Origin: a virus
Lineage: Duplodnaviria > Caudoviricetes
Virus record (IMG/VR): IMGVR_UViG_3300042988_000213
Location: 1-37,740 of that record
DNA: 37,740 nucleotides
Reading direction: 5' to 3' (one strand)
The notes beneath the pieces were generated by a model. The model had not been told where the DNA came from and made no database searches. It saw only the letters and a program-made list of their open reading frames with translations. Positions 2,661-24,359 of this stretch are shown piece after piece. A program made the translations under genes and the position numbers. Position 1 is the stretch's first letter, and each line of letters opens with the position of its first letter.

Positions 2661-5120
2661 ATGGCAACAACCGTCCCCAATAACCCATACGATACGCAGC
2701 CCCCAGCGACTGGCTCCACGGGCATCGTGGGCAGCGCTATGACGGGCGGCGCTACCACCGGCGCAAACGCAGCACAATCGACTGCCACCCCCAGCGCGGC
2801 CAACGCTGCGCCTCAGACATACGCCCCCCAGACTCGCGAAGTCAACCGGTCGACAGAGACGGCCGCCGGCCAAGTCGAGTCGCTGCTGGCCAAAGACAAC
2901 CCGCTCATGCAGCGGGCTCGCACGCTGGCCACCCAGGGCATGAACAAGCGGGGCCTGGTCAACAGCTCCATGTCGCAGGGCGCAGGTGTCGCGGCCATGA
3001 TTGACCGCATCACCCCGATCGCGCAGCAGGACGCCCAGACGTACAGCAACCAGGCGCTGGCCAACCAAAGCACTGTCAATCAGGCCGGGCAGTTCAACGC
3101 CTCCGAGATCAACAAGTTTGGCCTGCAGAAGTCTGACCAGGCGTTCACGGCTGCAGAGAGCGCTACCAACCGCCAGTTCCAGACGGGCGAACGCATCGGC
3201 AGCCAGACGTTTACGTCCGAGCAAAACCAAGCAACTCAGGCCTTCCAGGCCGCGCAGTCTCAGCTTGATCGCGCCCAGCAGACGGCGCTGGCCGACAAGA
3301 GCATTGAGGCCCAGCAGGCGCTTCAGCTCGCGCAGCAGACTTTCCAAGGTGCGCAGAGTGAACTCGACCGCGTCAATCAGAAGGCCTTGCAAGAGAGCCA
3401 GCAGCAGTTCACTGCCGGACAGTCTGCGCTTGACCGTGCGCAGCAAGTGTCCCTTGCCCAGGCCGCTCAGCAGTTCCAGGCCTCACAGGCTGAGCAGGAT
3501 CGAGCCACGCAGATCATGCTGGCCGACAAGCAGATCACTGCAACACAAGCCCTTGAGCAAGCGCGTCAGGCGTTCCAGTCGGAGCAGGCTGGACTGGATC
3601 GCACACAAGCTGCAACGCTGGCCAAAGAGGCACAGACGTTCCAAGCCACTCAGAACGAAATGAGTCGCGCCCAAGACCTGATGCTGGCGGACAAGAACAT
3701 TACAGCGCAGCAGGCTTTGGAGCAGTCGCGCCAGTCGTTCCAGTCAGCCGAGTCGGCCCTTGATCGCACTCAACAAACCAGCTTGGCAAATGCAGCTCAG
3801 ACCTTCCAAGCCTCGCAAGCCGAGAAGGACAGAGCAACTCAGATCATGCTTGCCGACAAGAACATCTCGGCAACGCAAGCGCTGGAGCAGGCAAGACAAT
3901 CGTTCCAAGCGAATCAGTCTGATCTGGATCGCACCCAGCAAGAGCGACTCCAGACCGCGCAGCAATCGTTTGCCTCAGCCCAGTCTGCGCTTGACCGCGC
4001 ACAGCAAGTTGCACTTGCAGACAAGTCTGTTGCTGCGCAGCAGGCATTGCAGGCGGCTCAGCAGACGTTCCAAAGTTCGCAAGCTGAACTTGATCGCGCC
4101 CAACAGACTGGCATCGTCAATCGCCAGATTGAGGCCCAAGAGAAGCAGCAGAGTGCGCAGCAGGCGTTCTCGAGCGCTCAGGCAGCTTTGGACCGTGCGC
4201 AGCAGGTGGCTTTGGCCGACAAGAGTGTGGCGGCACAACAAGCGCTGCAGGCTGCGCAGCAGACCTTCCAATCGGCTCAGGCAGCGCTTGATCGCACGCA
4301 ACAGACAAGCATTGCTGACAAGCAGATTGCTGCGCAAAAGGAACTGCAGACAGCGCAGCAAAACTTCGCGTCTTCGCAAAGCGAACTTGATCGTGCACAG
4401 CAAGTTGCGCTCAGTGACAAGTCCATTGCCGCACAGCAGGCTCTGCAGACTGCGCAGCAGAACTTCGCCAGCGCTCAAAGTGCCTTGGACCGAACCCAGC
4501 AGACTGCGATTGCTCAGGCGCAGATTACCGCCAGCCAGACGCAGCAAGCGGCCCAACAGCAGTTCGCAGCAACGCAGGCAACCCTTGATCGTGCGCAGCA
4601 AGAGTCAATGACTCGTCTTGCAGACGCGCTCAACCAGGCCAACGTCAGCAAGACTTTTGCCGCGAACTTGACGCTGCAGACGTCAAGCGCGGTCAACGCA
4701 ATTCAAGCCGACGGAAACATGACTCCCGAGGCGAAGAAGGCTGCCATCCAGAACGCCATCGACAACGCGAACAACACCATGCAGTGGGGCTCGACGTTCT
4801 ACAACACGGCGCTGCCGACTATCGCCGGGCCAAGCAACGGAGCCGGTGTCGTCAACCCCGGCGCTGGCGCTGGTGCTGGCGCTGCAACGCCACCAGTCAC
4901 GGCGCAAGTCCCAGCGCCTGCTCCAGTCGCAGCTCCTGTGCCCGCACCCGCGCCTGCACCAGCGCCAGTTCCTGTCCCCACTCCTGCTCCTGCGCCAGCC
5001 CCCGCACAGACGGGCATCGTTGCTCGCGCCCAGGTCCAAGACCAATGGGGCCGCTCGCCGGGCGACCCGGAGTACGGGATTGACCCATACGCCTACTACA
5101 ACGGCAACAACACAGCATGA
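2661..5120 (+). CDS. Gln/Ala-rich repeat protein; probable internal virion/DNA ejection (pilot-like) protein
   Basis: SD GAGG; N-terminal RGLVNSSM motif; 16 units of 22 or 33 aa (QxFxxxQxxLDRxQQ); Pro/Ala linker near the C-terminus. Confidence 0.7.
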   Translation: MATTVPNNPYDTQPPATGSTGIVGSAMTGGATTGANAAQSTATPSAANAAPQTYAPQTREVNRSTETAAGQVESLLAKDNPLMQRARTLATQGMNKRGLVNSSMSQGAGVAAMIDRITPIAQQDAQTYSNQALANQSTVNQAGQFNASEINKFGLQKSDQAFTAAESATNRQFQTGERIGSQTFTSEQNQATQAFQAAQSQLDRAQQTALADKSIEAQQALQLAQQTFQGAQSELDRVNQKALQESQQQFTAGQSALDRAQQVSLAQAAQQFQASQAEQDRATQIMLADKQITATQALEQARQAFQSEQAGLDRTQAATLAKEAQTFQATQNEMSRAQDLMLADKNITAQQALEQSRQSFQSAESALDRTQQTSLANAAQTFQASQAEKDRATQIMLADKNISATQALEQARQSFQANQSDLDRTQQERLQTAQQSFASAQSALDRAQQVALADKSVAAQQALQAAQQTFQSSQAELDRAQQTGIVNRQIEAQEKQQSAQQAFSSAQAALDRAQQVALADKSVAAQQALQAAQQTFQSAQAALDRTQQTSIADKQIAAQKELQTAQQNFASSQSELDRAQQVALSDKSIAAQQALQTAQQNFASAQSALDRTQQTAIAQAQITASQTQQAAQQQFAATQATLDRAQQESMTRLADALNQANVSKTFAANLTLQTSSAVNAIQADGNMTPEAKKAAIQNAIDNANNTMQWGSTFYNTALPTIAGPSNGAGVVNPGAGAGAGAATPPVTAQVPAPAPVAAPVPAPAPAPAPVPVPTPAPAPAPAQTGIVARAQVQDQWGRSPGDPEYGIDPYAYYNGNNTA
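3237..4620 (+). repeat. Degenerate coding tandem repeat, 66- and 99-nt units (11-aa base period)
   Basis: 16 recurrences of the F-x3-Q-x2-LDR unit (some degenerate) spaced 22 or 33 aa apart. Confidence 0.9.
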
Positions 5121-5566
5121 CCAAGATCGTCTGCCGCAAGGCCAAACTGGATGACATCCCCGCGATCGTAGACATCGCGGTGGAGTCGGTGTCGCGCGAC
5201 CCGCTGCCGGTGAAGATCAACCGCGAGGCGATGGCCGACACTGCACGCACCTGCCTGAACCCAGCCCACTTCATGTGGGTCGCGGAGCAGGACGGCAAGG
5301 TGGTGGCGTCGGTGGCCGCATGCGTGCAGGAATCGTTCTGGTTCAGCAAGCTGCAGTGCTCGGTGCTGCTGTACTACACCCGGGTGCCGGGTGCTGGAAT
5401 CCTGCTGCTGCGCGAGTTCGCGCGGTGGGTCAAGAGCCGCTCTGCCATCAAAGTGGCGGTGCTTGAGTTGGAACCCGGCGCAGATCCGCGCCTGGTGAAG
5501 TTTTTAAATCGGTTGGGCTTTGCTCGTGAATCGCTCAACGTCACGTATGTCAGGAGTGCAACATGA
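5117..5566 (+). CDS. GNAT-family acetyltransferase
   Basis: RKAKLDDIPAI…WVAEQDGKVV…GAGILLLREF…LNRLGF GNAT pattern; position among virion core genes recalls T7 gp13. Confidence 0.8.
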   Translation: MTKIVCRKAKLDDIPAIVDIAVESVSRDPLPVKINREAMADTARTCLNPAHFMWVAEQDGKVVASVAACVQESFWFSKLQCSVLLYYTRVPGAGILLLREFARWVKSRSAIKVAVLELEPGADPRLVKFLNRLGFARESLNVTYVRSAT

Positions 5567-6264
5567 GTAAGGTCGCGAAGTCGGTGGGCCGTGCGGTCAG
5601 CAAGGTCGTCAAGGGCGTTACCAACGTCGTCAAGAAGGTGGCCAGCTCCAAGCTGGGCAAGGTGCTGATCGCAGCCGCCGCCATCTACTTCGGAGGTGCG
5701 GCTCTGACGGGTGCGATGCAAGGGGCCTCTGCTGGGAGCGGATTTCTAGGCACCATATCCAGCGCGGTCGAGGGGGCGGCAACTGGCATTGGCAATGCTT
5801 GGAGCAGCCTAGGAACCGCCGCATCCCAAGCCGTTGGTGGCAACTTTGCCAATGCAGGGAATGCGCTCTCGACGGGCTTTCAAGGCGGCACCGCTTCAAT
5901 GGTCGATGGCGCAATGGTCTCGCAACCTTTGAGCATTGCGTCTGCGCCAATCACTCCGGCGGCCCCCACCGTGCCTAGCACTGCGCCGACATCCGGGCTG
6001 GATGTGAACTCGCTGATTGGAAAAGCTCCGCCTCAGATGTCGGTTCCAGGCTTGAACGTCCCTGCGGCTCCGCCATCAGGGATGATTGAAAAAATGATGG
6101 CCAGCCAGTACACCGCGCCCGCACTGATCTCTGGCGGCACCCAACTGATTGGCGGTGCCATGCAGGGGTACAGCGCTCAGCAGCAGCAGAAGAAGCAAGA
6201 GCAGATGGCGGCTGACGAGCGCAATCGCTACAACACCAACGTCGGTACACGCCTCTGGGGCTGA
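5563..6264 (+). CDS. Gly/Ala-rich internal virion (ejection) protein with membrane-active segments
   Basis: Basic amphipathic N-terminus, hydrophobic helix, Gly-rich helices, Q-rich tail; ATGA overlap. Confidence 0.65.
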   Translation: MSKVAKSVGRAVSKVVKGVTNVVKKVASSKLGKVLIAAAAIYFGGAALTGAMQGASAGSGFLGTISSAVEGAATGIGNAWSSLGTAASQAVGGNFANAGNALSTGFQGGTASMVDGAMVSQPLSIASAPITPAAPTVPSTAPTSGLDVNSLIGKAPPQMSVPGLNVPAAPPSGMIEKMMASQYTAPALISGGTQLIGGAMQGYSAQQQQKKQEQMAADERNRYNTNVGTRLWG

Positions 6265-6275
6265 AAGGAAAGATC

Positions 6276-6821
6276 ATGGCAGGACTCATTCAACAACAGA
6301 TGGCTGGCGCTCCAGCCACCGAGCAGGCTAAGCCAGCAGCCCCACAGCAGCCGATGCCCGAGCAGCAGATGCCTGCGGGCGAGATGGCCGAGGGCGAGGG
6401 TCCAGACCCTGACGCCGACCCGGGCTACCAGCAGGCCATGGCGTTCTCCATGGAGGCGCTGTACAGCAAGGAAGCTGCCAAGAACGTGGCCAAGTCCCTG
6501 AAGACTGGCGGCGACCCGGTGGAGTCTTTGGCCAACACCGCATACGAGATCGTCTCCATCGTGGACGAGCGCACGGAGGGCGCAATCCCCGACGAGTTGC
6601 TGGTGCTGTTCGCATCCAAGATCCTCGAGGAAGTCGCCGAGATCGGCGAGGCGGCTGGCGTTCAGTACAAACCATCGGACGTTGCGCTTGCACTCAAGCA
6701 GATGATCCTGCGCTTCCTGGGCGAGCAGGGCGTGGACACCACGCAACTGCAGCAGGCCATGGACCAGGTCGACCCTGAAGAGTTCAACAAGGTCGAGGAA
6801 GACGAGGAGGTGCCGGTATGA
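6276..6821 (+). CDS. Hypothetical acidic helical protein, virion module
   Basis: SD AAAGGA; strong codon bias; operon context. Confidence 0.75.
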   Translation: MAGLIQQQMAGAPATEQAKPAAPQQPMPEQQMPAGEMAEGEGPDPDADPGYQQAMAFSMEALYSKEAAKNVAKSLKTGGDPVESLANTAYEIVSIVDERTEGAIPDELLVLFASKILEEVAEIGEAAGVQYKPSDVALALKQMILRFLGEQGVDTTQLQQAMDQVDPEEFNKVEEDEEVPV

Positions 6822-7855
6822 GCGGATTGATCTGGGCCGGTATCGGCAAGGGCATCGCAGACGCGGGCTCCACGTTCGGCAGCTACATGGCCAAGGACAT
6901 TGAGGCCAACCGGCTGGAGGAGCGCGAGGCTCTGCGTGAGGAGCGTCTGCTCAAACGTCAGGAGGCGCTCGACCAGTTGAAGGCTGACCGCGAAGAGGCC
7001 AAGGCCGAGGCGTTGAAGCAACGGGTGATCAGCGAGTCCGAGGCCGTCGGCGTCAAGGCCGCCGCGATTGGCTCGGCTCGCGATGTCGCGCAGGGCGAGA
7101 AGGACGTCAAAGGTCTGATCAACCGTCAGTCGCAGATCGCCGGTGACTCGCCAGCGGCCAGCGAGGAGGAGATCAAGAAGCTGATCGCCGAGAACCCGCA
7201 GTACAAGGAGATCTACCGCGCGGCTGGCTACATTGACAAAGAGCCGACCGCCAACCAAAAGCGGCTGCAGCGTGCGGAGGACGAGGCCCAAGCGGCCAGC
7301 GACATCGGCGCTCATTCCTCGGTGATCGACGCCTATGCCAAGAAGCGCGACAGCGTGCTTGCGCAGATCCGCGAAGAGAACAAGGTGGAGGCTGAAAAGC
7401 GCAGGGATGACCGAGCTGCCGCAGACCGCGCAGCTTCCGACCGTCGCTTTGAAGCGCTGATGCCTATCCGTCAACAGAACGCTGATGCCAACACCACGCG
7501 CGCAGGCGCTGCCGTGACCAGTGCGAACAAGCCTTCGTCTAGCGCTTCCGACCCGAACAAGCCAGCCACCACGGCAGACCTGCAACGGCAGGTCAACGCG
7601 GCAAAAGATGAACTTGCCAAGGCGCTGAGCGTGGAGTCGCGGAATGACATCAACAGGGAACTGGCGTCGCTACGTAAGAAAGCCGCAGCCGGGAACGCTG
7701 CAGCCAAAGCGACACTTGAGCGAGTTCAGCCCCAGATCGACGAGGAAAGCGCTGCAAACCAGCGCCTGTTGAACTTCAAGCGGCCAAGCTCTTCTGCTTC
7801 AAATACAAGGGATAATTCGACAACCCGCCCTCCGCTCAGCAGCTTCGCTCGCTGA
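6818..7855 (+). CDS. Coiled-coil internal virion/ejection protein candidate
   Basis: N-terminal GLIWAGIGKGIADAG glycine-rich helix followed by a long charged coiled coil. Confidence 0.65.
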   Translation: MSGLIWAGIGKGIADAGSTFGSYMAKDIEANRLEEREALREERLLKRQEALDQLKADREEAKAEALKQRVISESEAVGVKAAAIGSARDVAQGEKDVKGLINRQSQIAGDSPAASEEEIKKLIAENPQYKEIYRAAGYIDKEPTANQKRLQRAEDEAQAASDIGAHSSVIDAYAKKRDSVLAQIREENKVEAEKRRDDRAAADRAASDRRFEALMPIRQQNADANTTRAGAAVTSANKPSSSASDPNKPATTADLQRQVNAAKDELAKALSVESRNDINRELASLRKKAAAGNAAAKATLERVQPQIDEESAANQRLLNFKRPSSSASNTRDNSTTRPPLSSFAR

Positions 7856-7890: not shown

Positions 7891-10800
7891 ATGAAGTTCG
7901 ACATCAATGCAGCCCGCAGCTCCGGGTATTCCGACGACGAGATCGCTGAATACCTGGCAACAGAAAACAAGTTTGATCTGAGCGGGGCGTTGAAGTCTGG
8001 CTACAGCGCATCGGAGGTTATCGGCTTCCTGTCCGGGGCCGACGCGGCACCGGTTGAGGCGGTGACCGACACCGGCGACGAGTCTGCTCGCCTTGCCGCC
8101 AGGTACAAGGCACCTGAAAAGCCCGGCCTGATTGAGCGCGCGGCCAGCGCAATCTCTTCGGTGCTGCCAAAGCCCGTGGACCCCATGGGCATTGCCTCCG
8201 GCAAACCGTTGGGTAGCACGCCGATTCGGGCCGAGGAGCCCGTAAAGCAGTCCAAAGCACCTACCCCCTACCGCGACCGCCGCGAGGCGCTGGACGACGC
8301 CGTCAACCTGCTGGAGGAGGGTGCTGATCAAGGTGCTGTGACCGAGGCCTTTGGAAAAGCTGGCATCAAGTTTGACGAGATCGTTGCTCACGGCCAGAAG
8401 CGCGGCAGCGAATACTTCAAGCAGCAGACTGTGCCTCAGGTTGACACCGAGGTTGCGCGCCTTGCTGCCCGCTACCCAGCTCCGCAGACGACCGATGAGA
8501 TCAAACCCTACGAGACGAGCGTTGGCGAGGACATCGCCAACTTCGCCAAGCGGGTGAGCGGCCGCTCAAGCCAGGCCTTTACCGGCTTGCTGGCCAACAC
8601 CGGCGTGATCAATGAGGATCAGGCAGCCGCAGCGCTGGCGCGCGACGAGCGACGCATTCAGGCAGCCCGTGCGCCTGAGTCCATTCAAGCCGGGTTTGAG
8701 GAAATTGGCCAAGCCAAGACCTACGGCGAGGCGGTGACTGCACTGGCCCGCAACCCGGGCGCTACGGCCACCATGCTGGCTGAGTCTGTGCTGATGACGG
8801 CCCCTGTGCTGGCAGCTTCTGCAGCTCGCCTGCCAGCCGTTGGTTTGGCTGCCGCCACCGGCGGCTTCTCCGCATCGCTCGAGTACGGCGGTGCCATGGC
8901 TGACGTGCTGTCTGAGCGCCGCATCGACATGCTCGACGCCAACAAGCTGGCGGCCGCTCTGAAAGACCCAGAGATCATCGCCGAGATCCGTGACAAGGGC
9001 ACGAAGCGCGGCCTGACCATCGGTATCATCGACGGCCTGACCGCAGGCATTGCCGGCAAGTTCCTTGAGCCCGTCCAGAAGACCATTGCAGCAGGCAAGC
9101 TGGCATCCGACGCCGCTCGCCGGGCAACCGTCGGCGCATGGGCCAAGGAGCTTGGCGTGCAGGTCGCAGGCGGCTCTGGCGGCGAGTTCGCCGCGCAGCA
9201 GTTGACCGGCGAAAACAAGCCCGCAGACGTGCTGCTTGAGGGTCTGGGTGAAGGCGTCTCGGCTCCGTTTGAGGCTCGGTCCAACCTGGCCGCATCTCGC
9301 AAGCTGGATCCGCTCCAGCAGATCGCTCAAGAGATTGAGGGCACAAACATTGACGTGGCCGGTGGCGTGGATGGACGTGTCCGCACGCTGCTCAACCCCA
9401 ATGCCTACGACTCAACACTGATCAGCCCCGAGCAAACAACGCGCCAGGCTGGCGACGTCGGGCCATCCGCGCCAGTGCAGACTCAGGACGCCTCTGCTCC
9501 TGCCAACCCGCAGCGCACACGCCTGATTGAGCTGGAGACCGTTGCACGCGGCGGCACCTCGTACACCTACCCAACGGCTGGCGGAGAGTCTGTCACTGTT
9601 GAGATCCCTGAGGGCCGCTCGCTTTCTGAGCAGGAGCGCACAGAGCTTGGCGACCTGCGCATGGGACGGTCTCAGCCTATCAGCTTCACGCCCGCCGACA
9701 GCCCAACCGCCCGGGCTGGACTGGCTCCGATCGTGGTGCCTGTGCCATCTGGCGCGCCCATTACGCAGGAGCAGAAAACCGAGCTGCCTCCTGTCAACCC
9801 AGAGATCGAACAGCAGTTCGGCCTCGACACACTTCGCATGGGGACAACCAATGTCGGCACAACTGGCGGAACTGGAGCCGCGCCTGCAGTGGGCGGTGTC
9901 GCAGGGAGCGATCAGCGTAGCGGAGGCGTGGACCTTCCAGGACTTGATGCTGCTGGCACCGGACAACTCAGTGGTGGAGATGCCGGACTGCCTGCAACCA
10001 ATGCTGGGGCGGATGTTCCTGCTCGAGGTGCAGGCGGACAACCGACTGCCAGCCTGAGCGCAGAAAATAACAATGCTGTAGGCCAGCCGGTCGAGCAGTG
10101 GGTCGGCCGCAAGGGCGGTGGCTACGAGACCGAGGCCGATGCGAAGCAGGCTCTGCCTGGCCGCCAGCGCATGTTCCCCGCCCTTGATTGGACGGTCGAG
10201 CAAATGCCAGGAGGCAAGTTCCGCCTGGCCGGGTATGAGCAACAGAGTTCGCAGCCTGCTCCCACTGTGGGCACCACGGAGGCAGGGGCCGGGGTTACCC
10301 AGCCGACGCAGGCTGCGCCTATCACATCCGAAACCGCCAGCAGCGCTCAGGCCGCGCCAGCACAGGGTCCGGCTATCACATCCGAAACCGCCGCACCCAT
10401 CACTGCCCCCAGCGGCAAGCCTTTCAGCACCGAGAAAACCGCCGCCGTATATGCGCAGCAAAACGGCATCACCGGCTACAGCACCGTCAAGATGGACGGT
10501 GGCTGGGTCATCAAACCAACGGAGACGACCCTTGGCACTCAAGCCCCTCAAGCCATCCAAGCAACGCAAGAAGGACAGCAAGCACCAGCCGTCGGTGGAG
10601 CTGCAACCACTGCCAGTTCAATTCGACAGCCCCAAGCGGGAGTACTGCGCAACGCACCGACTGGCGGAAGCATTGAGTCGCAGCAAATCCGAGACACCTA
10701 CCAAGCAGAGCTAGACGCAGTCAAGGAGCCGATCAAACTCAACGCGCCAACGCCAGAAGCAGAAGCGCAAGTTGAGGGCTTTGGCAACGCACTTGGCAAG

Positions 10801-13800
10801 GTGTTTGGCATTGACCGCCCGGTCGTGGCGTTCAGCGACTCCACAGCCCCCAACGGTTTTGCGTTCAAAGGTCAAGCGTTTGTCAATACAGCCGACGTCG
10901 AGATCGGGGTTCAGCGCACCTCGCTGCATGAATTCACGCACCTGATCGAAGCGATTGCAGAAGCCGACACGCAGTCCGGCAAGACAGGCACTGCCGCACA
11001 GAACTTCATCAAGCAGATCTACAGCGTCTTTGATGACGTGTCGGATGACTTCAAGCGCGTCTATGTCGAGAAATACCTGCACGCTGCTGATCTGAAAGAT
11101 CTCAAGGGCGACGAGCGAGAAGCCGCTATTCAGGGTTACCTGAAGAGCCAGAAGCTGCGCTCGGAGATCACCGCAGACTTCATGGGCAACCGCGCCAACG
11201 ACCGCGCCTTCCTTGAGGACCTGGCAGAAAAGGACCCCAACGGCTTTGAGTCGTTTGTTCAGAAGTGGATCTCGTTGATCGACAACCTGATGCAGAAGCT
11301 GCGCGGCGCTCCCGCTCAGGAGCGCGGCCCACAGGCTGCCGTTGACCGCGCCGTCAAAGACTTGGCCAAGGCTAAGATGGTTGCCCGCGATGCGTTGATT
11401 GCTTACCGCAAAGGCAGCATGAAGGAGCGCCGACAGGCTTCTTCTGCGGGCGTCACGCAGGGTCGGGTGACCCAAGCCACAGCCATGGCAGGCAACTCTC
11501 AGCCGATGGCATCCAACCGCGCCGCTCCTGAGACGCCTGAGTTCAAGAAGTTCTTCGGCAACTCAAAGGTTGTGGATGCCGCTGGCAATCCCATGGTGGT
11601 CTATCACGGAACCAACGCTGATGTCACCGCTTTTGACGACACAGCCTCTGGTGCCAACTCGGGTAATCGAGGCTTCTTGGGTCGCGGTTTCTATTTCAGC
11701 AGCAGCCCGCAATCGGCGTCAATGTATGCAGGCGTGACTCGACCGCAAGGCACAGACACATGGCGTCGCACCGATGGCGGAAACGTCATGCCGGTGTATC
11801 TGTCACTGCAGAACCCGCTCGAGATCAGCGAGAAGGGCCTGTCGAAAAAGGCGGCAGACGCACTCAACTCCGTGCCCGTCACGGGCCTCAAGTTCTTTGA
11901 GGGTGATCGCGGCGTCGACGGCGATCTGGCCCTTGCTGTCGAGCAGAACCCGGAGTTGTCCGACGCGATTCGCAGCGCACTCACCGCACTCGGCTACGAC
12001 GGTGTGATTGTCGATGGTGGCCGAGAGATCGTTGCCTTCCGTCCCGAGCAGATCAAGTCTGCCACCGGCAACGACGGTCAGTTCGATGCGTCGAACCCAG
12101 ACATCCGTCGCAGCAACCGCGCTGCTACTGAGGCCAACAAGACAGTCGACGTCAACGGCGTTGAGCTGCCTCTCAATGATGATGGCACCGTCACGTTGTA
12201 TCACCATACTGATAAAGCGAGCGCCGATCAGATCCGCGCAAGCGGCCAGCTGCGCTCCAAAGGTGAGCCAGATGTCTACCTCACCACGCGCCAGCAGGCG
12301 GACACCGGCTACGGTGACACTGCCGTAGCGGTCCAGGTCGATCCGGCCAAGCTGACGCTGGATGACGAGTTCCCCGATGGGCGCACCGACTTCCGCATGA
12401 GCGTCGGCAAGCCAGGTGGTTCTGTTTCAGTTGTCGCTGAGCAAGGCGACAACGTCATGCCGCCAGAGCAAATCAATGCCGACGGCATCATGTTCTCTCT
12501 GCGCAAGGTCGAGGAGATCAACGACGCGCCAGAGATCACGATGAAGGATTTGGTCGGACAGACGGTGTTCCCGATCCTTGCCGACCTGACCGCCGCTGGC
12601 TACGTCTACATGGGCAAGGAGCTGCGTGGCGGCCCGTACTACACGCTGTTGCCATCGAACTCCAAGGCTGGCCTGATCTGGGCCAACGACGGCAAGGGCG
12701 TGGCCAGCATCAAGAACAAGAAGGCTGCACGCGGTGTGATCGGCTTGATCGTGGCGATGAAGCAAGACTCGCACGCGACCAACAACACCGTTGCCAATAT
12801 CATCTTCCGCGCTGTCGAGGACGAGATCCAGAAGGGCTCTGTCGCCAAGGCAGACATTCCCAAGCTGGACGACATCGTGCGTGGCCTTGCCACCCGCACC
12901 GCCACCAAGACCCGCAAGGTCGACGGCAAGAAGGTCAAGGAAACGAAGCAGGTGTTCCCGAAGTTCGCTGACTTCCCCGGCTTCAGCGACCGCGCTGCGT
13001 CCGAGAAGTTCCTGCGCGCCATGCCATTTGAGGCGCGCGGCCTGTTCTTTGAGGAGATGACCAAGCCCACCGTCGAAGACCTGGGCCTCGGCGTGATCCG
13101 AAAGGTGATCAACGACACGGTCGAGCCAGACCTTCGTGGCCTAAACATGGGCGACGTGGTCATGGCCATCCGCTTCGATCCCAACGCTGACACGATCGAG
13201 CTGGGCGAGAAGACTGGCACACCGGAGCACGACTCCTACCGCTACGGCGTCAAGGGCGAAGTGATCGGCAAGTTCAAGCGTCCGATCTCGTTCGAGAACG
13301 TGTTTGTCGAGCTGATGAAGGAGCGCCGCGCCGCTGGCAAGGATCGCCCTGCAGGCAACTACCGCTCGCTCACGCTGCGCAAGCCCGAGCAACTGATCAC
13401 TGAAGAGATCGCAGGCGGCGTCGGTCAGGAGAAGTACAAGACGTTCAAGACCCCGGCCGAGGCCAAAGCTGCCGTTGCTGTTGCAGCCATGGACTGGAAG
13501 GTCATCGACCGCCCCGCAGCCGCAGGCGTCAAGGAGTTCTTGCGCACGGCCCGCATCTACGGCGAAGGCAAGGTGCCATCGTTCGGTGAAGCCAAGATGC
13601 TGATCAAGGATGGGCGTCTGCGCATCTTCCGCTTGGCCAACACCGAGAGCTGGTTCTCGATCGAGAGCCGTGGCAACAAGCGCGTGATGACTCACGCCAT
13701 GGTTGCGCAGCCGGGCGTTGAGCGCGACATGCTGTTTGGCGACATGGTGTTCCAAGCGCGCGCCAACGGTGCCACGCACATCGAAGAGGGCGGCAAGGTC

Positions 13801-16800
13801 GAGCCGATCACCGAGCAGAAGGCAATGCGCCGCGTTGCTCCGATCGTCAGCGAGTTGTCTGAGATGCCGGATGCCGACATCAAGAACTTGGGCATCGACC
13901 CCAAGGAAGTCGACCGCCTGAACGGGTTGATTGGTGAGGGCGAAGAGGAATTCTCAGCAGAAGCGCTGCCCGTCTACAGCAACCGCGTGACTGATACACC
14001 CGCCTTCAAGCGCTGGTTCGGCGACAGCAAAGTGGTGGACACCGAGGGCAAGCCGCTGATCATGTATCACGGCACCGCACAAGACATTTCGACATTCCGC
14101 GCAAAGCAAGCCAAAGCAATCTTTGTCACAAGCGACCCCGATTTTGCTGAAGGTTTTGCTGGTATGAGCGAGGCGTGGATGCTCAAGAACTATGAGCAGG
14201 TACTGACTCAGGAGCAAATTGAGGCGGCATTTGACGAGGCAGAATCCGCGATTCGTCAAGAACTGAGGTCTGCGGTCGTCGCCGATGTCGAGGTTGCCAA
14301 GCTGCGGGGTGGCAAGCCAACTGGCATTGCGCAAGAGAAGCTGTCCGCCGCGCTTTCTGAGCAGATGCCATCCGGGCCAAACATCATTCCCGTCTACGTC
14401 AGCGCTCAAAACCCGTTTGATTTTGAGAATCCAGATCACATTGAGATGCTGAAAGAGTACGAGCGGGACAATCGCTACACGCCGCGCAGCATCAGCTTCT
14501 CGATCGGTTCGATTGAGACCGGCTACTGGGAAGAGATCGAAAGGCCGACAATTCAAGCAGCCCTTAAAGACTTGGGTTTTGATGGCTTCTACGTGGAAGA
14601 GGATGGCAAGAAAAACCTTGCCGTCTACAAGCCTGAGCAACTGAAATCCGCCATCGGCAACAACGGCGAGTTCGATCCGGCCAACCCTGACATCCGCATG
14701 AGCAACCGGGCTACGTTCCGCGAGGACATTCCCCGCGAAGAGTGGCTTGCTGAAAAGATCGAAGACGCAGAACTGGGCGGCAAGAACGAGTTTGGTGTGC
14801 CTCGCCGGATGGGTCCTGCGACCGGGTACTTCAGCCGGCCATTGAATTTGCCGACCTACCTTCTGGGCACGCTGCGCGGCGAGCGCGGTGAGCAAGAGAA
14901 CGTGCGAGAGTCTTCGCTCGAGTACATCCGCAGCAACTGGGATGAGGTCAAGCAAGAGCCAGCTTATGTTGAGGTCGATCCGTTTGGGCGCGCATGGGTA
15001 AGCGAAGGAAACCACCGAATCATGGTTGCCCGCGAGCTTGGAGAGAAGACATTCCCGACAGAGGTGAAGTACTTCAGCGGCGGACAACGAAAGGCTGGGC
15101 CATGGGCTCCTGATGAGTTGCTGCAACTGGATGAGCGGGTTGACATCCGCGCAAGTAACCGCGTGCTCGAGGACCGCAGCGGCTTGTCGCGGTTGCCTTA
15201 CCAAGGGTATGTCAAAGCTGAAGTCCCTCGCGTGCAGGCGGCCCGCAAGATGGCTGGCATCTTGGCCAAGCTGGATGCTGGCCAGATCACGCAGAATGAG
15301 TTCGAGCTGCAAGTGCGCGAACTCTCCGAGCGCATGGCCTTGGTGTCGGCCACCAAGGACGCCAACAAGATCGTCAGCGAGCGCGCGCGTGGTGCTGACA
15401 TCGTCCGCGAGAAGCTGATTGCTGCCCGTCGTCGCGGGGAGATTGAGTCGGACACTGCAGAGTTCGCCCTGTGGGCGCTGCAGCAGAACCCGGCTATGGC
15501 CGAAGGTCTGGGCATCTCGGTGCGTGAGCAACCGGAGAACCAGCGCGGTGCGGCTGGCGACTACAACCCTGCAGCCGCAATCATGCGGGTGTTCAAGGGC
15601 GCATCCAAAGCCACCACTGCGGTCCACGAGATCCTGCACCACACCGAGCGCATGATGCCCGAGGCAGTGCAGACCGGCATCCGCAAGGAGTGGGCGAAGG
15701 CCTACGCCAAGGCACTGAACAGCGCCAAGCCAGCGCAGCGCGAGGCGCTGGAGAAGATGCTCGCGGCGATGGCTGGTGACCAGAAGGCTCAGGCCGATGT
15801 GCGCGATGCGTTCAACGACGGCACGCTCGATGCAGACGTCCACTACCAACTGGTCAACCCCAGTGAGTTCTGGGCCGTCAACGCGACCGACATCCTGCAG
15901 CGCCGCTACGAGGCGGGCTCTTGGATTGGCAAGGCCAAGCAGTGGCTGCGTGAGATGGTGCAGAAGGCCAAGGGTCTGGTGGGCATGCGCTCAAACGCTC
16001 CCGTGCTGCGTGGCCTGGAGGCTGTGCTCAACAGTGATGGCGAGCGTCAGTCGAAGAAGATGCTGTCTGAGGGCAAGGTGTTTGAGGACATCTCTGCGCC
16101 CGATACCAATGCGTTCAAACGCTGGTTCGGCGACAGCAAGGTGGTGGATGCTGAGGGTAGGCCGCTGGTGGTGTATCACGGCACTGGCTCGGACATTACT
16201 GCGTTTGATGCCAAGAACCCTCGCATGCGAGATGGCAAGCTTGGCAAAGGCATCTATCTGACTCCGTCCACTCAAAAGGCGAACTTCTTTGCGAACTTGC
16301 GCGCAAAAGATGGTAGCCCTAACGTGATGCCGCTGTACGCCGCAATCACCAATCCATTTGAGATTTTTGGAGAGAGCAATAGGCCCGTCTCTGGAGTTGA
16401 CCAAGCTAGCCTGATTGCGAAAGGATACGATGGCGTTGTCCTTTACGGCGACGACGGTGCCATGCAAGAGATCGTCGCCTTCCGTCCCGAGCAGATCAAG
16501 TCCGCCATCGGCAACAACGGTGAGTTCGATCCAGAGAATCCTGACATCCGCAAGAGCAACCGCGTGCAGCCCACCGACTGGCGCGACGAGGCTGGCCGCG
16601 TCCGGTTCATGCCCGGTGCAGTGGCCTACCGCTACGCAGCCGACATCGCCAACAAGCTGCTCGACAAGACCCCGCTGATCGGCTCGCTCAAGCCCATCGA
16701 CAAGGACCTCGCGCTGGCCATGCGCCGCATGAAGACCGAGATCGAGAACGCACAGACCCGCACCGCTGGCGTGGCCTCCAAGTTGGGTGAGCTGCCAGAG

Positions 16801-18969
16801 GACGAGCGCAAGATGATCAGCGACGTGATCGAGGGCGAACTCAAGCGTGGCGTCAAGCCCGCCAAGCGAGTGCTCGAGGTGGCTGCATCCATGCAGTCGA
16901 TCATGTCCGAGCAGAGCGCTGAGCTGGTCCGTCTGGGCATGCTGACCTCCGACGCAGCCAGCCGCTGGGACGGCAAGTACCTGCCACGCTTCTACGAGCA
17001 GACGCTCAAGAACGAAGCCAGCCAGTGGGCCAAGGCAGCCAAGGCATTGCTTGGCCGCAAGAAGACCATGCAAGGCATCAAGGGGTCCAACCTCAAAGGC
17101 CGTGGCATCTTTGAGACGATCCCCGTGGACGAGCTGGAAGCTTGGCTGGCCGAGGGCTGGGAAGAGCGCGATCCGAACTTCGACCCAGCCACCGACACCG
17201 AGATCACCGTCTGGCGCGACTACACCCGTGCTGAGCGGGAGAACATGGGCGAGATCCGCGACGCCATGTTCCGCTTCGTCATGGGCTACATGAAGAGCCA
17301 GCGCGACGTGGCCCTTGGCCGCCTGTACGAAAACCTCGCCGATACGGTGGCCAGCAAGTCCGAGAAGGAAGGCTACGTGCAGGTGCCCAAGACCAACATT
17401 GAGAACACCAAAGCCCCTCGCTACGGCAAGCTGTCTGGCAAGTGGGTGCCACAAGAGGTGCTTGACCACCTGAGCGCTTTCGACGGCAGCATGGAGAATG
17501 AACTGCTCAAGGTCTATCGCAAGGGCCTGTCCATGTGGAAGGAAGGCAAGACCGTGCTGAACCCGGTTGCGCACGCCAACAACGTGCTGTCCAACCTGAC
17601 CATGGCCCACTTCGCTGGCGTGTCCTACTGGGACGCCAACAAGTACCTTGGTGCCGCACGCGACATCGTCAAGGGCGCACCGATGCTGACCGAGGCCCGC
17701 GAGGCTGGCCTGTTCGGCGGCACCGTGTCGCAGGCTGAACTGGTGAGCATGCTGCCTGACCAGCTCAAGGTGCTGGCCGCAAAGACAGAGTCCAATGTGG
17801 GCAAGATTGTCGACACGGCGTGGAACGCCATGTCGTTCTTCCTGCGCAAGCCTCTTGGTGTGGCGTACGAAGCCGAAGACCTGTACTTCCGCTACCTGAT
17901 CTATCGCGACGCACGCGCCAAGGGCATGGACCCAGAGGACGCGGTGACCTACGCTCAGCAGTACATCTTCACCTACGACGACCTGCCCAAGGGCGCACGC
18001 ACGATCCGCGACGCACCGATCGGCATCCCGTTCTTCTCGTGGACCTACAAGGCGATCCCGATGATTGCCCGCACGGCTCTCGAGTACCCCTGGCGCATGG
18101 CTGCCCCTGCGGCTGCCATGTACGCGGCCAACGCGGCCATGTATGCCATCGCTGCTGGCGCTGATGCCGGTGACGACGAGCCATGGTGGGAGGCGCTCAA
18201 GCGCTACGTCATGGATGCTGAGTTCCGCGAGCAGGCCAAGCAGCTCGAGCAGCAGGAGCGCAAGAACCTGCCTGAGTGGCAGAAGGGCTTCAGTTCGATC
18301 GGCACGCCCAAGGCGATCCGTCTGGGCAACGATGACCTGACCAACCTGCCTCTGTTCTTGGACGTCAGCCGGATCTTCCCAGGCGGCGATCTGGGCGACT
18401 TCCACAACAACCTGGGGGGTGTGCCCCTCCCGGCCTGGTTGACGCCAAATAACCCTGTTCTGACGAGCCTGACGGCCTTCCTGCAGAACAAGGACTCGTT
18501 CACCGGCAAGGAGATCGTCAGCGCGAAGCTCGACACCGGCGGCGAGAAGTCAGCCAAGTGGGGCGAGTATGCGTGGCGTCAGTTCGCACCGGCCGTCGCT
18601 CCGTTCAACTACCACTTCGATCGCACGATGAATTCAGTGGCCAACGCCACCGGCTCGACGATTGATCTGGGCGTGAAGGAATACACGGGCGTGGACAAGA
18701 TGGGCCAGCCTGTGCAGCCCAAGTACGCGGCCATGCAGACGTTCGGCCTCAAGGTCCGCCCGACAGACCTCGAGGTCTCCGAGCAGATCGAAGAGTCTCA
18801 GCGCAAGCAGTTGATCCGTGAACTCGACAAGCAGATCCGCCAGATCAAGCGCCTTGAAAACAAGGGCTACTACAGCGAGGAGAAGGCCGAGGCGATCACC
18901 GATCCGATCCGCGAGAAGCGCCAGCGCCTGAAGGAAGGCCTGACGATCGACGGCGAGGAGCGGGAATAA
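7891..18969 (+). CDS. Giant polyvalent (probably virion-ejected) protein, 3692 aa: 2 HExxH zincin domains, 4 ART-like domains, ParB/Srx-like domain, uncharacterised domains, helical C-terminal domain
   Basis: Uninterrupted 11-kb ORF; SLHEFTH and AVHEILHH; three FKxxFGxSKVVD…YHGT…G(Y/F)DG…PEQ(I/L)KSA modules plus LYHHT…VYLTT; VSEGNHR. Confidence 0.9.
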   Translation: MKFDINAARSSGYSDDEIAEYLATENKFDLSGALKSGYSASEVIGFLSGADAAPVEAVTDTGDESARLAARYKAPEKPGLIERAASAISSVLPKPVDPMGIASGKPLGSTPIRAEEPVKQSKAPTPYRDRREALDDAVNLLEEGADQGAVTEAFGKAGIKFDEIVAHGQKRGSEYFKQQTVPQVDTEVARLAARYPAPQTTDEIKPYETSVGEDIANFAKRVSGRSSQAFTGLLANTGVINEDQAAAALARDERRIQAARAPESIQAGFEEIGQAKTYGEAVTALARNPGATATMLAESVLMTAPVLAASAARLPAVGLAAATGGFSASLEYGGAMADVLSERRIDMLDANKLAAALKDPEIIAEIRDKGTKRGLTIGIIDGLTAGIAGKFLEPVQKTIAAGKLASDAARRATVGAWAKELGVQVAGGSGGEFAAQQLTGENKPADVLLEGLGEGVSAPFEARSNLAASRKLDPLQQIAQEIEGTNIDVAGGVDGRVRTLLNPNAYDSTLISPEQTTRQAGDVGPSAPVQTQDASAPANPQRTRLIELETVARGGTSYTYPTAGGESVTVEIPEGRSLSEQERTELGDLRMGRSQPISFTPADSPTARAGLAPIVVPVPSGAPITQEQKTELPPVNPEIEQQFGLDTLRMGTTNVGTTGGTGAAPAVGGVAGSDQRSGGVDLPGLDAAGTGQLSGGDAGLPATNAGADVPARGAGGQPTASLSAENNNAVGQPVEQWVGRKGGGYETEADAKQALPGRQRMFPALDWTVEQMPGGKFRLAGYEQQSSQPAPTVGTTEAGAGVTQPTQAAPITSETASSAQAAPAQGPAITSETAAPITAPSGKPFSTEKTAAVYAQQNGITGYSTVKMDGGWVIKPTETTLGTQAPQAIQATQEGQQAPAVGGAATTASSIRQPQAGVLRNAPTGGSIESQQIRDTYQAELDAVKEPIKLNAPTPEAEAQVEGFGNALGKVFGIDRPVVAFSDSTAPNGFAFKGQAFVNTADVEIGVQRTSLHEFTHLIEAIAEADTQSGKTGTAAQNFIKQIYSVFDDVSDDFKRVYVEKYLHAADLKDLKGDEREAAIQGYLKSQKLRSEITADFMGNRANDRAFLEDLAEKDPNGFESFVQKWISLIDNLMQKLRGAPAQERGPQAAVDRAVKDLAKAKMVARDALIAYRKGSMKERRQASSAGVTQGRVTQATAMAGNSQPMASNRAAPETPEFKKFFGNSKVVDAAGNPMVVYHGTNADVTAFDDTASGANSGNRGFLGRGFYFSSSPQSASMYAGVTRPQGTDTWRRTDGGNVMPVYLSLQNPLEISEKGLSKKAADALNSVPVTGLKFFEGDRGVDGDLALAVEQNPELSDAIRSALTALGYDGVIVDGGREIVAFRPEQIKSATGNDGQFDASNPDIRRSNRAATEANKTVDVNGVELPLNDDGTVTLYHHTDKASADQIRASGQLRSKGEPDVYLTTRQQADTGYGDTAVAVQVDPAKLTLDDEFPDGRTDFRMSVGKPGGSVSVVAEQGDNVMPPEQINADGIMFSLRKVEEINDAPEITMKDLVGQTVFPILADLTAAGYVYMGKELRGGPYYTLLPSNSKAGLIWANDGKGVASIKNKKAARGVIGLIVAMKQDSHATNNTVANIIFRAVEDEIQKGSVAKADIPKLDDIVRGLATRTATKTRKVDGKKVKETKQVFPKFADFPGFSDRAASEKFLRAMPFEARGLFFEEMTKPTVEDLGLGVIRKVINDTVEPDLRGLNMGDVVMAIRFDPNADTIELGEKTGTPEHDSYRYGVKGEVIGKFKRPISFENVFVELMKERRAAGKDRPAGNYRSLTLRKPEQLITEEIAGGVGQEKYKTFKTPAEAKAAVAVAAMDWKVIDRPAAAGVKEFLRTARIYGEGKVPSFGEAKMLIKDGRLRIFRLANTESWFSIESRGNKRVMTHAMVAQPGVERDMLFGDMVFQARANGATHIEEGGKVEPITEQKAMRRVAPIVSELSEMPDADIKNLGIDPKEVDRLNGLIGEGEEEFSAEALPVYSNRVTDTPAFKRWFGDSKVVDTEGKPLIMYHGTAQDISTFRAKQAKAIFVTSDPDFAEGFAGMSEAWMLKNYEQVLTQEQIEAAFDEAESAIRQELRSAVVADVEVAKLRGGKPTGIAQEKLSAALSEQMPSGPNIIPVYVSAQNPFDFENPDHIEMLKEYERDNRYTPRSISFSIGSIETGYWEEIERPTIQAALKDLGFDGFYVEEDGKKNLAVYKPEQLKSAIGNNGEFDPANPDIRMSNRATFREDIPREEWLAEKIEDAELGGKNEFGVPRRMGPATGYFSRPLNLPTYLLGTLRGERGEQENVRESSLEYIRSNWDEVKQEPAYVEVDPFGRAWVSEGNHRIMVARELGEKTFPTEVKYFSGGQRKAGPWAPDELLQLDERVDIRASNRVLEDRSGLSRLPYQGYVKAEVPRVQAARKMAGILAKLDAGQITQNEFELQVRELSERMALVSATKDANKIVSERARGADIVREKLIAARRRGEIESDTAEFALWALQQNPAMAEGLGISVREQPENQRGAAGDYNPAAAIMRVFKGASKATTAVHEILHHTERMMPEAVQTGIRKEWAKAYAKALNSAKPAQREALEKMLAAMAGDQKAQADVRDAFNDGTLDADVHYQLVNPSEFWAVNATDILQRRYEAGSWIGKAKQWLREMVQKAKGLVGMRSNAPVLRGLEAVLNSDGERQSKKMLSEGKVFEDISAPDTNAFKRWFGDSKVVDAEGRPLVVYHGTGSDITAFDAKNPRMRDGKLGKGIYLTPSTQKANFFANLRAKDGSPNVMPLYAAITNPFEIFGESNRPVSGVDQASLIAKGYDGVVLYGDDGAMQEIVAFRPEQIKSAIGNNGEFDPENPDIRKSNRVQPTDWRDEAGRVRFMPGAVAYRYAADIANKLLDKTPLIGSLKPIDKDLALAMRRMKTEIENAQTRTAGVASKLGELPEDERKMISDVIEGELKRGVKPAKRVLEVAASMQSIMSEQSAELVRLGMLTSDAASRWDGKYLPRFYEQTLKNEASQWAKAAKALLGRKKTMQGIKGSNLKGRGIFETIPVDELEAWLAEGWEERDPNFDPATDTEITVWRDYTRAERENMGEIRDAMFRFVMGYMKSQRDVALGRLYENLADTVASKSEKEGYVQVPKTNIENTKAPRYGKLSGKWVPQEVLDHLSAFDGSMENELLKVYRKGLSMWKEGKTVLNPVAHANNVLSNLTMAHFAGVSYWDANKYLGAARDIVKGAPMLTEAREAGLFGGTVSQAELVSMLPDQLKVLAAKTESNVGKIVDTAWNAMSFFLRKPLGVAYEAEDLYFRYLIYRDARAKGMDPEDAVTYAQQYIFTYDDLPKGARTIRDAPIGIPFFSWTYKAIPMIARTALEYPWRMAAPAAAMYAANAAMYAIAAGADAGDDEPWWEALKRYVMDAEFREQAKQLEQQERKNLPEWQKGFSSIGTPKAIRLGNDDLTNLPLFLDVSRIFPGGDLGDFHNNLGGVPLPAWLTPNNPVLTSLTAFLQNKDSFTGKEIVSAKLDTGGEKSAKWGEYAWRQFAPAVAPFNYHFDRTMNSVANATGSTIDLGVKEYTGVDKMGQPVQPKYAAMQTFGLKVRPTDLEVSEQIEESQRKQLIRELDKQIRQIKRLENKGYYSEEKAEAITDPIREKRQRLKEGLTIDGEERE
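9851..10057 (+). CDS. Putative overprinted 68-aa gene nested in the +1 frame of the giant ORF
   Basis: GGGGA SD-like sequence upstream of ATG 9851; GC3-rich codons in this frame while the host frame becomes A/T3-rich, low-complexity Gly/Ala/Thr. Confidence 0.6.
   Translation: MSAQLAELEPRLQWAVSQGAISVAEAWTFQDLMLLAPDNSVVEMPDCLQPMLGRMFLLEVQADNRLPA
10532..10714 (+). CDS. Putative second overprinted 60-aa basic gene nested in the +1 frame of the giant ORF
   Basis: GGAG at 10521-10524, TTG start 7 nt later; codon bias shifts to the +1 frame. Confidence 0.4.
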   Translation: MALKPLKPSKQRKKDSKHQPSVELQPLPVQFDSPKREYCATHRLAEALSRSKSETPTKQS

Positions 18970-22757: not shown

Positions 22758-24359
22758 TCAGTCCCAATGGTAAGAGACAACGGTCGGGTACTTTGAAGCA
22801 CGACTGACAACGATTGCTTTTGGCGTCCTCAAGATTGTTTGGTCGTACTCAATCCATTCGATTGCCTCTTCAGCATTGCTGGGGATTGCGTCGATCTTTG
22901 ATCTTTGTTGCCACCACTTCTCTGCCTTCTTTCTGGCAAACCCTTCGTGTCCGATGCAGCACCAGTCCGCCGCCCTCTTGAGTAGGCCGTCGTAGTACTC
23001 CACCCGCAGGCTTGGCGGACTGCCGAGCTTCTGGTGTAGCTTGTATCGCACCTCGGTCACTGGAATGGTCTCGAACATCGTCTCCTGCTGGCTGCTCAGG
23101 ACGGCCGCAGCGGAGGCCTGGATTCCGTGCTTGATCCGCTCGGGCTCGGGGAAGAGGAAGCCGCAGTCCAAGCACTCGGTGGCGCTGGCGGCGTTCTGGC
23201 TGCCGCAGTGGGGGCACAGCTTGTGCGGAGCCTCACCCTTGCGGCCACCGGTGGGCAGGCGGCCCTTGACGGCGTCCACAGGCCCCATGATGGCGGTCGT
23301 GTCGGTGAAGTCTGCCCACAGGCAGTTCTCCTTGCCGGGTGCGATGCGCATGCCACGGCCAGCGATCTGCACGTAGAGCACCGGGCTCTTGGTGGCCCGC
23401 AGCAGGGCGATGAAGTCGGTCTCGGGCGCGTCGAACCCGGTGGTCAGCACGCCGACGTTGACCAGGCAGCGCACGCGCCCGGCCTTGAAGTCGCCGATCA
23501 GCTTGGCCCGCTCGACCTTGGGCGTCTCGCCACAGACCATGGCGGCCGTCACGCCCCGGCGCTGCAGGGCCTCGGTGACGTGGTTGGCGTGGCTCACCGT
23601 CACGGCGAACACCAGCCAGCGCTTCCTCTCGGCAGCGAGCTGCACGATCTCGTCGCAGGTTGCCTCGACCAGCTCCTCGGTGTCGGTGACCTTGGCCAAC
23701 TCGCTGACCACGTAGTCGTCGCCGCTGGTCCGCACGCCGTTGGCGTCGATCCTGGTGACCGTGGTGGCCGGGACCAGGGGTGACAGGAAGCCCAGGTCCA
23801 GCAGCTCGCGCATGGTCACGCGGGTGGCAATGTTGGTGAACAGCGGGTCATCGCCTGCGGTCAGCCAGACGCCGTTGCCGCGGAACGGGGTGCCGGTCCA
23901 GCCGATGCAGCGGGTGTGCGGGTTGTACTTGGCCAGGTCGTTGAGGAACGACCGCCACATGCCTGCGTCCTTGGGGTTGATCAGGTGGCACTCGTCGGCC
24001 AGCACGATGTCGATGCGGCCAAGCAGGTGAGCGTCGCGGTAGATCGAGCCGATCGTGGCGTAGGTGATCTGGCAGCCCAAGTCCTTGCGGCCAGCCCCGG
24101 CGCTGTAGATGCCGACGTTGGCCTCGGGCCAGACGGTGACGATCTTCTCGACGTTCTGCTCGAGCAGTTCCTTCTGGTGGACCAAGACCAAGATGCGGGT
24201 GCCGGGGAACTCCATGTCGGCACGCTGCGCCAGCAGGGCGATCATCAGGGACTTGCCAGCCCCCACGCAGGCCTCGACGATGGGGTTGCCGCCGTCGTGC
24301 CTGCTGAACCACGCCCACAGTTCTTCCAGCGTGCGGGACTGATACGGGCGGGGGATCAT
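22758..24359 (-). CDS. SF2 DEAD/DEAH-like helicase (RadD/YejH-like) with Zn ribbon
   Basis: VGAGKS, DECH, TGTP, LTTGFD, QIAGRGMR, CPHC…CLDC. Confidence 0.92.
   Translation of the reverse strand: MIPRPYQSRTLEELWAWFSRHDGGNPIVEACVGAGKSLMIALLAQRADMEFPGTRILVLVHQKELLEQNVEKIVTVWPEANVGIYSAGAGRKDLGCQITYATIGSIYRDAHLLGRIDIVLADECHLINPKDAGMWRSFLNDLAKYNPHTRCIGWTGTPFRGNGVWLTAGDDPLFTNIATRVTMRELLDLGFLSPLVPATTVTRIDANGVRTSGDDYVVSELAKVTDTEELVEATCDEIVQLAAERKRWLVFAVTVSHANHVTEALQRRGVTAAMVCGETPKVERAKLIGDFKAGRVRCLVNVGVLTTGFDAPETDFIALLRATKSPVLYVQIAGRGMRIAPGKENCLWADFTDTTAIMGPVDAVKGRLPTGGRKGEAPHKLCPHCGSQNAASATECLDCGFLFPEPERIKHGIQASAAAVLSSQQETMFETIPVTEVRYKLHQKLGSPPSLRVEYYDGLLKRAADWCCIGHEGFARKKAEKWWQQRSKIDAIPSNAEEAIEWIEYDQTILRTPKAIVVSRASKYPTVVSYHWD

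Follow-up and report, generated by a model that had tools for sequence, protein, structure and literature searches.

Candidate cleavage tags at the module joints of a giant phage polyvalent protein with two zincin-like domains

Introduction

Polyvalent proteins were defined, and the autoproteolytic release of their domains by resident zincins proposed, by Iyer et al. (2017; PMC5512222), in whose main text P1 DdrB is cited as processed. Since 2017 self-cutting by zincins has stood as a proposal to which there are counter-examples, and the parts of the literature searched hold no mapped sites; the main text of Iyer et al. (2017) names no cleavage site or junction motif and has 0 occurrences of the word "linker", the FTP supplements being outside scope. 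Here we describe a giant polyvalent protein of 3692 amino acids, without cysteine, encoded on the + strand at positions 7891-18969 of a 37,740-nucleotide stretch of phage DNA (the window), which is virus record IMGVR_UViG_3300042988_000213 (Duplodnaviria; Caudoviricetes), 66% complete. Short sequence tags mark the joints between its modules, and on balance we think it probable, from sequence comparison, that the tags are cleavage sites read by the first of two zincin domains in an ejected podovirus polyvalent protein. A polyvalent protein and its proposed self-processing are of an already known kind; the window protein adds named candidate sites, their coupling to zincin family and two tag types in one chain.

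The phage polyvalent proteins in the main text of Iyer et al. (2017) resemble the window protein in giant size, several ART-PolyVal domains (PF18760), interspersed HExxH motifs and a head/tail gene context, while the window protein differs in its specified candidate sites, their tie to zincin family and the two tag types in one chain. The virion RNA polymerase of N4, gp50, is described in the text covered as an ejected, beads-on-a-string protein of ~3500 amino acids with an HExxH domain, a single chain that is packaged unprocessed (PMC13434306); the window protein is alike in size and HExxH, but no polymerase was detected in it. Zincin or metallopeptidase domains in large virion cargo also occur in gp65-gp66-gp67 of phi14:2 and in fused crAss-like polyproteins, cleavage of the fused crAss-like form being called likely (10.1101/2020.03.07.982082), and a peptidoglycan role has been proposed for the metallopeptidase gp47 of phi24B (10.64898/2026.04.10.717836). 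These three differ from the window protein in carrying other cargo, and no mapped sites are given in the portions of text covered. A DarB-like protein was found in JC1 virions (PMC9144972), and the literature covered also included reports on crAss001 (PMC10172136) and Atu_ph08 (PMC6630229) and PMC9503650. Cultured phages gave no match beyond 23% to zincin 1 or to the C-terminal scaffold, and literature searches, with subscription journals and bioRxiv supplements outside scope, returned no description of such tags or of the ferritin cassette described below.

The giant protein and its modules

As judged from its domains and gene order, the giant protein belongs to the phage polyvalent proteins; it has two HExxH domains, and its gene cluster is of the ejection type. 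Disparate domains stand in one chain (three ART-PolyVal domains, two HExxH modules, a ParB-like lead and the mobile module M2), and the gene lies in a virion morphogenesis region, as read from the gene order of the complete relative G002. The modules run zincin 1, ART-PolyVal 1, M2, M3, ART-PolyVal 2, ParB-like, zincin 2, ART-PolyVal 3 and C-terminal scaffold, with eight joints between them, all on the + strand. An N-terminal region and low-complexity linker without tags (7891-10680; phrog_9880) precedes them, residues 1-505 matching the related loci L001 and L002 at 88%.

Zincin 1 (10681-11490) has its HExxH at residue 1013 (nucleotide 10927) and its third ligand at E1092; it is followed by tag 1, PMA-SNR (11503-11520, 12.3 bits in the profile described below), and in most homologues, by eye, a tag-like motif stands at this place. 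ART-PolyVal 1 (11575-12084; PF18760, E 7e-30) ends at tag 2, IRR-SNR (12103-12120, 14.1 bits). The mobile M2 (12121-12495; phrog_6170), of which 183 homologues lie within longer proteins, matches PF01885 at E 0.11 only and is possibly Tpt1/ART-like; it closes with tag 3, IMF-SLR (12487-12504, 14.7 bits), and the matching joint is tagged in L002 and L005. M3, of 490 amino acids (12505-13977; 98-99% to L001/L002), has no match in Pfam, PHROGs or Atlas, perhaps comprises two domains with no tag between them, and ends in tag 4, PVY-SNR (13969-13986, 12.3 bits); L001 has a DNA block in common with the window up to 13985. ART-PolyVal 2, which carries an insert (14005-14673; PF18760, E 1e-21), is followed by tag 5, IRM-SNR (14692-14709, 10.9 bits). 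The ParB-like module (14710-15153) is a lead only, having no Pfam match and, as its third Atlas match, a ParB_N cluster (score 0.93) in which Pfam assigns 58% of members; tag 6, IRA-SNR (15145-15162, 13.2 bits), closes it.

The mobile zincin 2 module (15163-16077) has its HExxH at residue 2579 (nucleotide 15625), with E2659 downstream; both HExxH motifs had been reported in the earlier note on this DNA, and both are present. At the next joint stands a second-type tag, VFEDIS (16078-16095), and a DNA block in common with L074 runs up to 16091, within it. ART-PolyVal 3 (16147-16527; PF18760, E 7e-28) contains a low-scoring SNR at 16375 and is followed by tag 7, IRK-SNR (16546-16563, 10.9 bits), where DNA blocks shared with L001, L002 and L005 start at 16555. 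The conserved C-terminal scaffold of 801 amino acids (16564-18966), without a Pfam match, is shared with 71 loci at 55-98% identity over the matched part. The three ART-PolyVal domains score 105, 78 and 99 bits against a Pfam curated cut-off of 31.2, and each is bounded by tags.

The junction tag

Seven of the eight joints carry an S-type tag. The earlier note had located an S-N-R motif at these seven sites, and the ORF places the S residues exactly there, at residues 1208 (nucleotide 11512), 1408 (12112), 1536 (12496, reading SLR), 2030 (13978), 2271 (14701), 2422 (15154) and 2889 (16555). With 7 occurrences where 0.46 are expected (Poisson 6e-7), SNR is the top tripeptide of the protein, two of the three copies at ART ends being duplication-related. 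One further exact SNR, absent from the earlier note, lies at residue 2829 (nucleotide 16375) inside ART-PolyVal 3 and scores low in the profile. This tag profile was built, with the window excluded, from 33 sites (27 distinct 8-mers), each taken from the last junction of a relative's protein. With training sites chosen by a loose motif pattern and including close relatives, it ranks the seven window sites 1-7 (10.9-14.7 bits; the next site scores 8.9) and leaves the internal SNR outside its top 25; shuffled versions of the window protein hold a mean of 0.22 such sites and a maximum of 2 (300 shuffles).

Across the family the motif reads hydrophobic-x-[F/L/Y/M]-[S/A/Q]-x-[R/K] or, more loosely, hydrophobic-x-x-[S/A/Q]-x-[R/K]. 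The junction tag is real, then, but the exact tripeptide SNR, which the earlier note took for the motif, is a variant of the window's lineage only. Tags within a phage are modestly more similar than tags between phages (0.555 vs 0.491, p 0.0005). That the motif also closes non-homologous modules, as had been seen before, is borne out by the four of seven tags that follow non-ART modules; the tag at the ART end, moreover, changes with the host. A by-product of ART duplication, already doubted in the earlier note, was rejected on these two grounds.

The tag is conserved at joints across relatives. Scanning with the C-terminal scaffold brought up 71 viral loci. A set of 119 proteins was reduced to 65 at 90% identity, and the last 900 amino acids of the 57 distinct relatives of at least 800 amino acids were aligned. 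All 57 rows are tagged, by eye, at or within ~12 columns of the window's last SNR, despite differing upstream modules. Breakpoints in the alignments, located independently of the motif, number 224; with the training joint excluded, 64 of them have a tag no more than 10 amino acids away, compared with 6.9 ± 2.7 at random. A second profile, the first plus leader-joint sites, finds 2.77 tags per 1000 amino acids in the cargo region and 0.036 outside it (162 vs 2 sites in the 65 non-redundant proteins, training sites included, at a self-chosen threshold of 9 bits). Tags stand also at fixed joints, after zincin 1 and after the cysteine leader, and a consensus site is found in the inter-module linkers. 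An unbiased test of the upstream against the downstream flanks of M2 gave a weak result (108 rows, reduced to 39 independent ones, p 0.009), with only 6/39 above the 95th percentile and the window outside those six. By eye, M2 hosts among P0002-P0121 show flanking tags of other lineages, F[QL]QQ, R[FY]MP, YARG (P0061) and LYQ (P0047), and in P0007 L[FL]SRRQ flanks M2 and both ART ends.

Tag type and zincin family

S-type tags occur at 1.2-1.8 per 1000 amino acids in 40 phages that have a zincin of the zincin 1 family, whose two clades are homologous, and at 1.56 per 1000 in 14 further partial phages without a detected zincin. In 55 proteins with zincin 2 only, the rate is 0.21 per 1000, equal to the shuffle rate of ~0.20, which led us to reject zincin 2 as an unlikely reader of SNR. 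At the C-terminal end of ART domains, position 0 is S, A or Q in 43 of 46 cases in the zincin 1 lineage and D or N in 6 of 8 cases in zincin 2 proteins without zincin 1; L108 and L129 have a D/N tag at both ART ends. A tag belonging to the C-terminal scaffold was likewise rejected, since tags track zincin 1 in both scaffold-less and zincin-1-less lineages: L072, L075-77, L144 and L172 combine zincin 1 and S-type tags without a window-type scaffold, and in L079 and L082-84 the scaffold matches at E 1e-148 or better, zincin 1 is absent, the joints are D-type and S-type matches number 1 each, which is about chance. Tag type, as far as these comparisons reach, co-segregates with zincin family, at the family level only, and zincin 1 is likely the reader of S-type tags.

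A profile search of 1.84 billion representatives gave 353 matches, of which 150 were listed and 114 passed filters (at least 1200 amino acids, 400 amino acids after the zincin, and a domain match); a few of these proteins are also among the loci above. Among the matches listed, the 114 filtered representatives hold 184 tags against 37 in shuffles, with at least one tag in 86, HExxH in 113 and a window-type scaffold in 5. Separately, relatives of zincin 1 (42-46%) occur at L176 and L177, in a Pseudomonadota metagenome-assembled genome (MAG) and a Rhodoferax MAG, a weak hint that the hosts are betaproteobacterial.

The second tag type

The joint between zincin 2 and ART-PolyVal 3, which the earlier note had found to lack SNR, indeed lacks it and carries VFEDIS instead, in register with D-type tags (hydrophobic at -3, D at 0). 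Zincin 2 is present in 58 more distant loci and is common in lineages with other tags; a like D-type pattern follows it in 20 of 45 distant rows against a background of 16.5%, a comparison weakened by a pattern chosen after the data were seen, by relatedness of the rows and by some mis-called anchors. VFEDIS was likely imported together with zincin 2 from a lineage with D-type tags. At the same joint L075 resembles the window, with the D-type tag alone, L076 and L077 have the D-type tag and then the host tag in tandem, and L074 has a host tag added downstream, an apparent recoding series.

Zincin 2 is 44-45% identical to that of the Erwinia phages PEp14, Pavtok and Stean, whose DarB-like giant protein (NC_016767 YP_005098431, 4914 amino acids) is, like the window protein, without cysteine. 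The PEp14-type protein differs in its tags: in L097, the matching IMG/VR record, S-type tags are no more frequent than chance. Further giant zincin 2 proteins, each with one cysteine placed at or close to an end, occur at L073, L103-L105, L110, L113-L115, L117 and L129; these loci gave no match to the L005 ferritin described next.

Split relatives

In 51 of the 71 loci (L005:8755-9550 and 50 more among L004-L071), a ferritin gene (PF00210, E 8.5e-19) interrupts the giant gene. The upstream ORFs end in INC[KD] or INC in 47 of 47 cases. All 51 downstream ORFs with an M..C start have the ferritin gene directly upstream, and either half contains one cysteine only, at the facing end. Tags flank the ferritin cassette, with DVMASNR on both sides in L005. 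The fused forms (window, L001, L002, L062) are without both end domains, and the complete G001 and G002 are without the ferritin. Frameshift or readthrough across the 500-bp gap of the split relatives was rejected, the gap being filled by the ferritin gene. The facing terminal cysteines, together with tags around the cassette, suggest that packaging or ejection requires an unbroken chain, so that any cutting would come after entry.

Proposed cleavage and its alternatives

If the tags are cut, the giant protein would be packaged as one chain, threaded through the tail, and refolded and cut inside the host cell, where zincin 1 would recognise and cut the tags and so set ART and the remaining modules free as individual proteins. 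Position 0, S or D, is the best kept in both tag types, and the likeliest predicted cut is directly in front of it; the P1' preference of zincins is the basis for this prediction. Zincin 2 and VFEDIS would have arrived as one block from a D-type-tag lineage, and module swaps between phages would cross over at tags, each swap retaining a cuttable joint. A wider picture, which we offer tentatively and with clearly less confidence than cleavage itself, is that phage ejection megaproteins use protease-specific cutting codes. The window protein would then be a two-protease, two-code chimera, formed by import of zincin 2 with its own site, and the tags would double as crossover points of a plug-in system for injected enzymes, including the ferritin/cysteine split-and-relink cassette placed between two tags.

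The H, E, H and downstream E of zincin 1 are invariant in 24 of 24 sequences, as are those of zincin 2 in 38 of 38, and the zincin 1 model (pLDDT 82) has the expected topology of a helix, three strands and the HExxH helix. None of the fold matches of zincin 1 is significant; a putative Zn-dependent peptidase (3c37, E 0.065) comes first among them and BepA fourth. Zincin 1 and zincin 2 show a distant relationship to each other (hhalign 80%), and in both models the tags lie in segments of pLDDT <50, where the alignments are shallow. The window zincin domains have no Pfam peptidase match, PDB sequence searches with alignments A5 and A6 gave no match below E 0.1, and fold matching through the VIA search gave helical bundles only (best Z 6.0).

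Several observations weigh against cleavage by zincin 1. The zincin 2 model lacks a beta sheet, and neither zincin has a fold match at E ≤ 0.001. Of the 224 breakpoints, 160 are not near a tag, and 28 of the 114 filtered representatives, among the matches listed, have no tag at 9 bits. HExxH-bearing N4 vRNAP, ArdC and TraC1 are described in the main text of Iyer et al. (2017; PMC5512222) as packaged or transferred full length. The tag and zincin 1 are, moreover, inseparable from the N-terminal half with which they travel. The closest relatives, L001 and L002, carry another zincin clade (homologous, hhalign 97%, 18% identity) and yet the same SNR tags, so that the link between tag and zincin is one of family and not one-to-one. 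At the nucleotide level, serine in tags is encoded by AGY in 114 of 127 cases against a 42% background, identical tag codons number 379 against 316 expected (775 pairs), and near-identical DNA blocks shared with L001, L002, L005 and L074 often begin or end at tags (11514, 12122, 13985, 16555 and 16091). Codon bias, codon identity and crossovers at tags all fit spread by recombination.

These nucleotide signals would be explained if the tags were uncut, a shared junction sequence for in-frame microhomology swaps, spread by descent, in a protein that stays one beads-on-a-string chain. The block ends at tags, the AGY serines and a codon identity 20% over expectation are as this explanation would have them, and the covered text on N4 vRNAP offers a precedent of a single chain with an HExxH domain (PMC13434306). 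Other shared-block ends, such as 12452 and 14016, lie outside tags. We consider the explanation improbable all the same: third codon positions of F, I, K, N and R in tags are otherwise at background usage, position 0 accepts S (in both codon classes), A and Q, a change from AGC serine to A or Q needs two or three base changes, tags stand at fixed joints too, and tag type follows zincin family. A strict DNA recombination site as sole cause was rejected on the third positions. Taken together, background third positions and the S/A/Q choice, alongside AGY bias, codon identity and block ends in tags, indicate that selection acts on the tags at the protein level and that they also function, or persist, as crossover points.

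Docking would account equally well for the protein-level selection and for the association with the zincin 1 half. Either the zincin 1 domain or the N-terminal half would then bind the tags as uncut peptides, so that modules are packed, ordered or unfolded for ejection or enzymes are kept quiet, and the catalytic target of the zincin would be a host protein or the cell wall. The terminal cysteines at the facing ends of the split relatives suggest selection for one continuous chain, and the peptidoglycan role proposed for phi24B gp47, in the text covered (10.64898/2026.04.10.717836), gives such a zincin target a parallel. One tag at nearly every joint, in low-confidence coil where alignments are shallow, and an invariant catalytic Glu form the pattern expected of processing sites, and we hold docking to be improbable too, ranking it just after the uncut junction.

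Cutting by a host protease or by an unrecognised phage head protease is very unlikely in our view. It would account for SNR tags that persist when one zincin clade is replaced by another, and a divergent protease could be missed. In G002 no peptidase family was found in 47 ORFs (Pfam) or 26 ORFs (PHROGs), with 35882-37999 (~2.1 kb) outside the scan, and the capsid, portal and scaffold-like ORFs and the other cysteine-free cluster genes had no tag at 9 bits; tag type, again, changes with zincin family. Prohead-protease maturation of the T4 gp21 type acts at one set of sites shared by capsid, scaffold and other head proteins, and has a separate head protease gene. The window system differs in that tags are absent, at 9 bits, from the G002 head proteins.

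We rank cleavage by zincin 1 as likeliest, followed by a recombination junction only, a docking peptide and an outside protease. The locus supplies candidate sites at exact residues, a candidate enzyme and, in its two zincins and two tag types, an internal control for specificity. Were cleavage to occur, it would be a bacteriophage counterpart of RNA-virus polyprotein processing; module boundaries of phage effectors could be read from sequence, and such proteins would be a source of new sequence-specific proteases.

Genomic context

Upstream of the giant gene, cysteine-free ORFs of 819, 233, 181 and 345 amino acids and a GNAT gene, all without tags, form a cluster on the + strand (2661-7855), and these are likely other ejection proteins. 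The lack of cysteine across the cluster is an indirect hint that the giant protein may be packaged and injected together with the DNA. The GNAT acetyltransferase (5117-5566), inside this cysteine-free cluster, is also present in G002. That complete relative encodes terminases, portal, capsid, an SU10-type adaptor, tail fibre and lysis genes, then the same cluster, and an integrase too.

Cargo modules in relatives (L062:395-11962; L059, L008, L023, L071; L009, L010) include an Acb1 anti-CBASS domain (E 1e-26), zeta-toxin-like kinases and weak RelA/SpoT matches. In L002, the closest complete relative, a Tad2-like anti-Thoeris domain and an integrase lie just downstream of the giant gene (L002:13135-13710). 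Elsewhere in the window, at 24356-26043, a Mom-like DNA modification gene adjoins a Cas4-domain exonuclease and a helicase.

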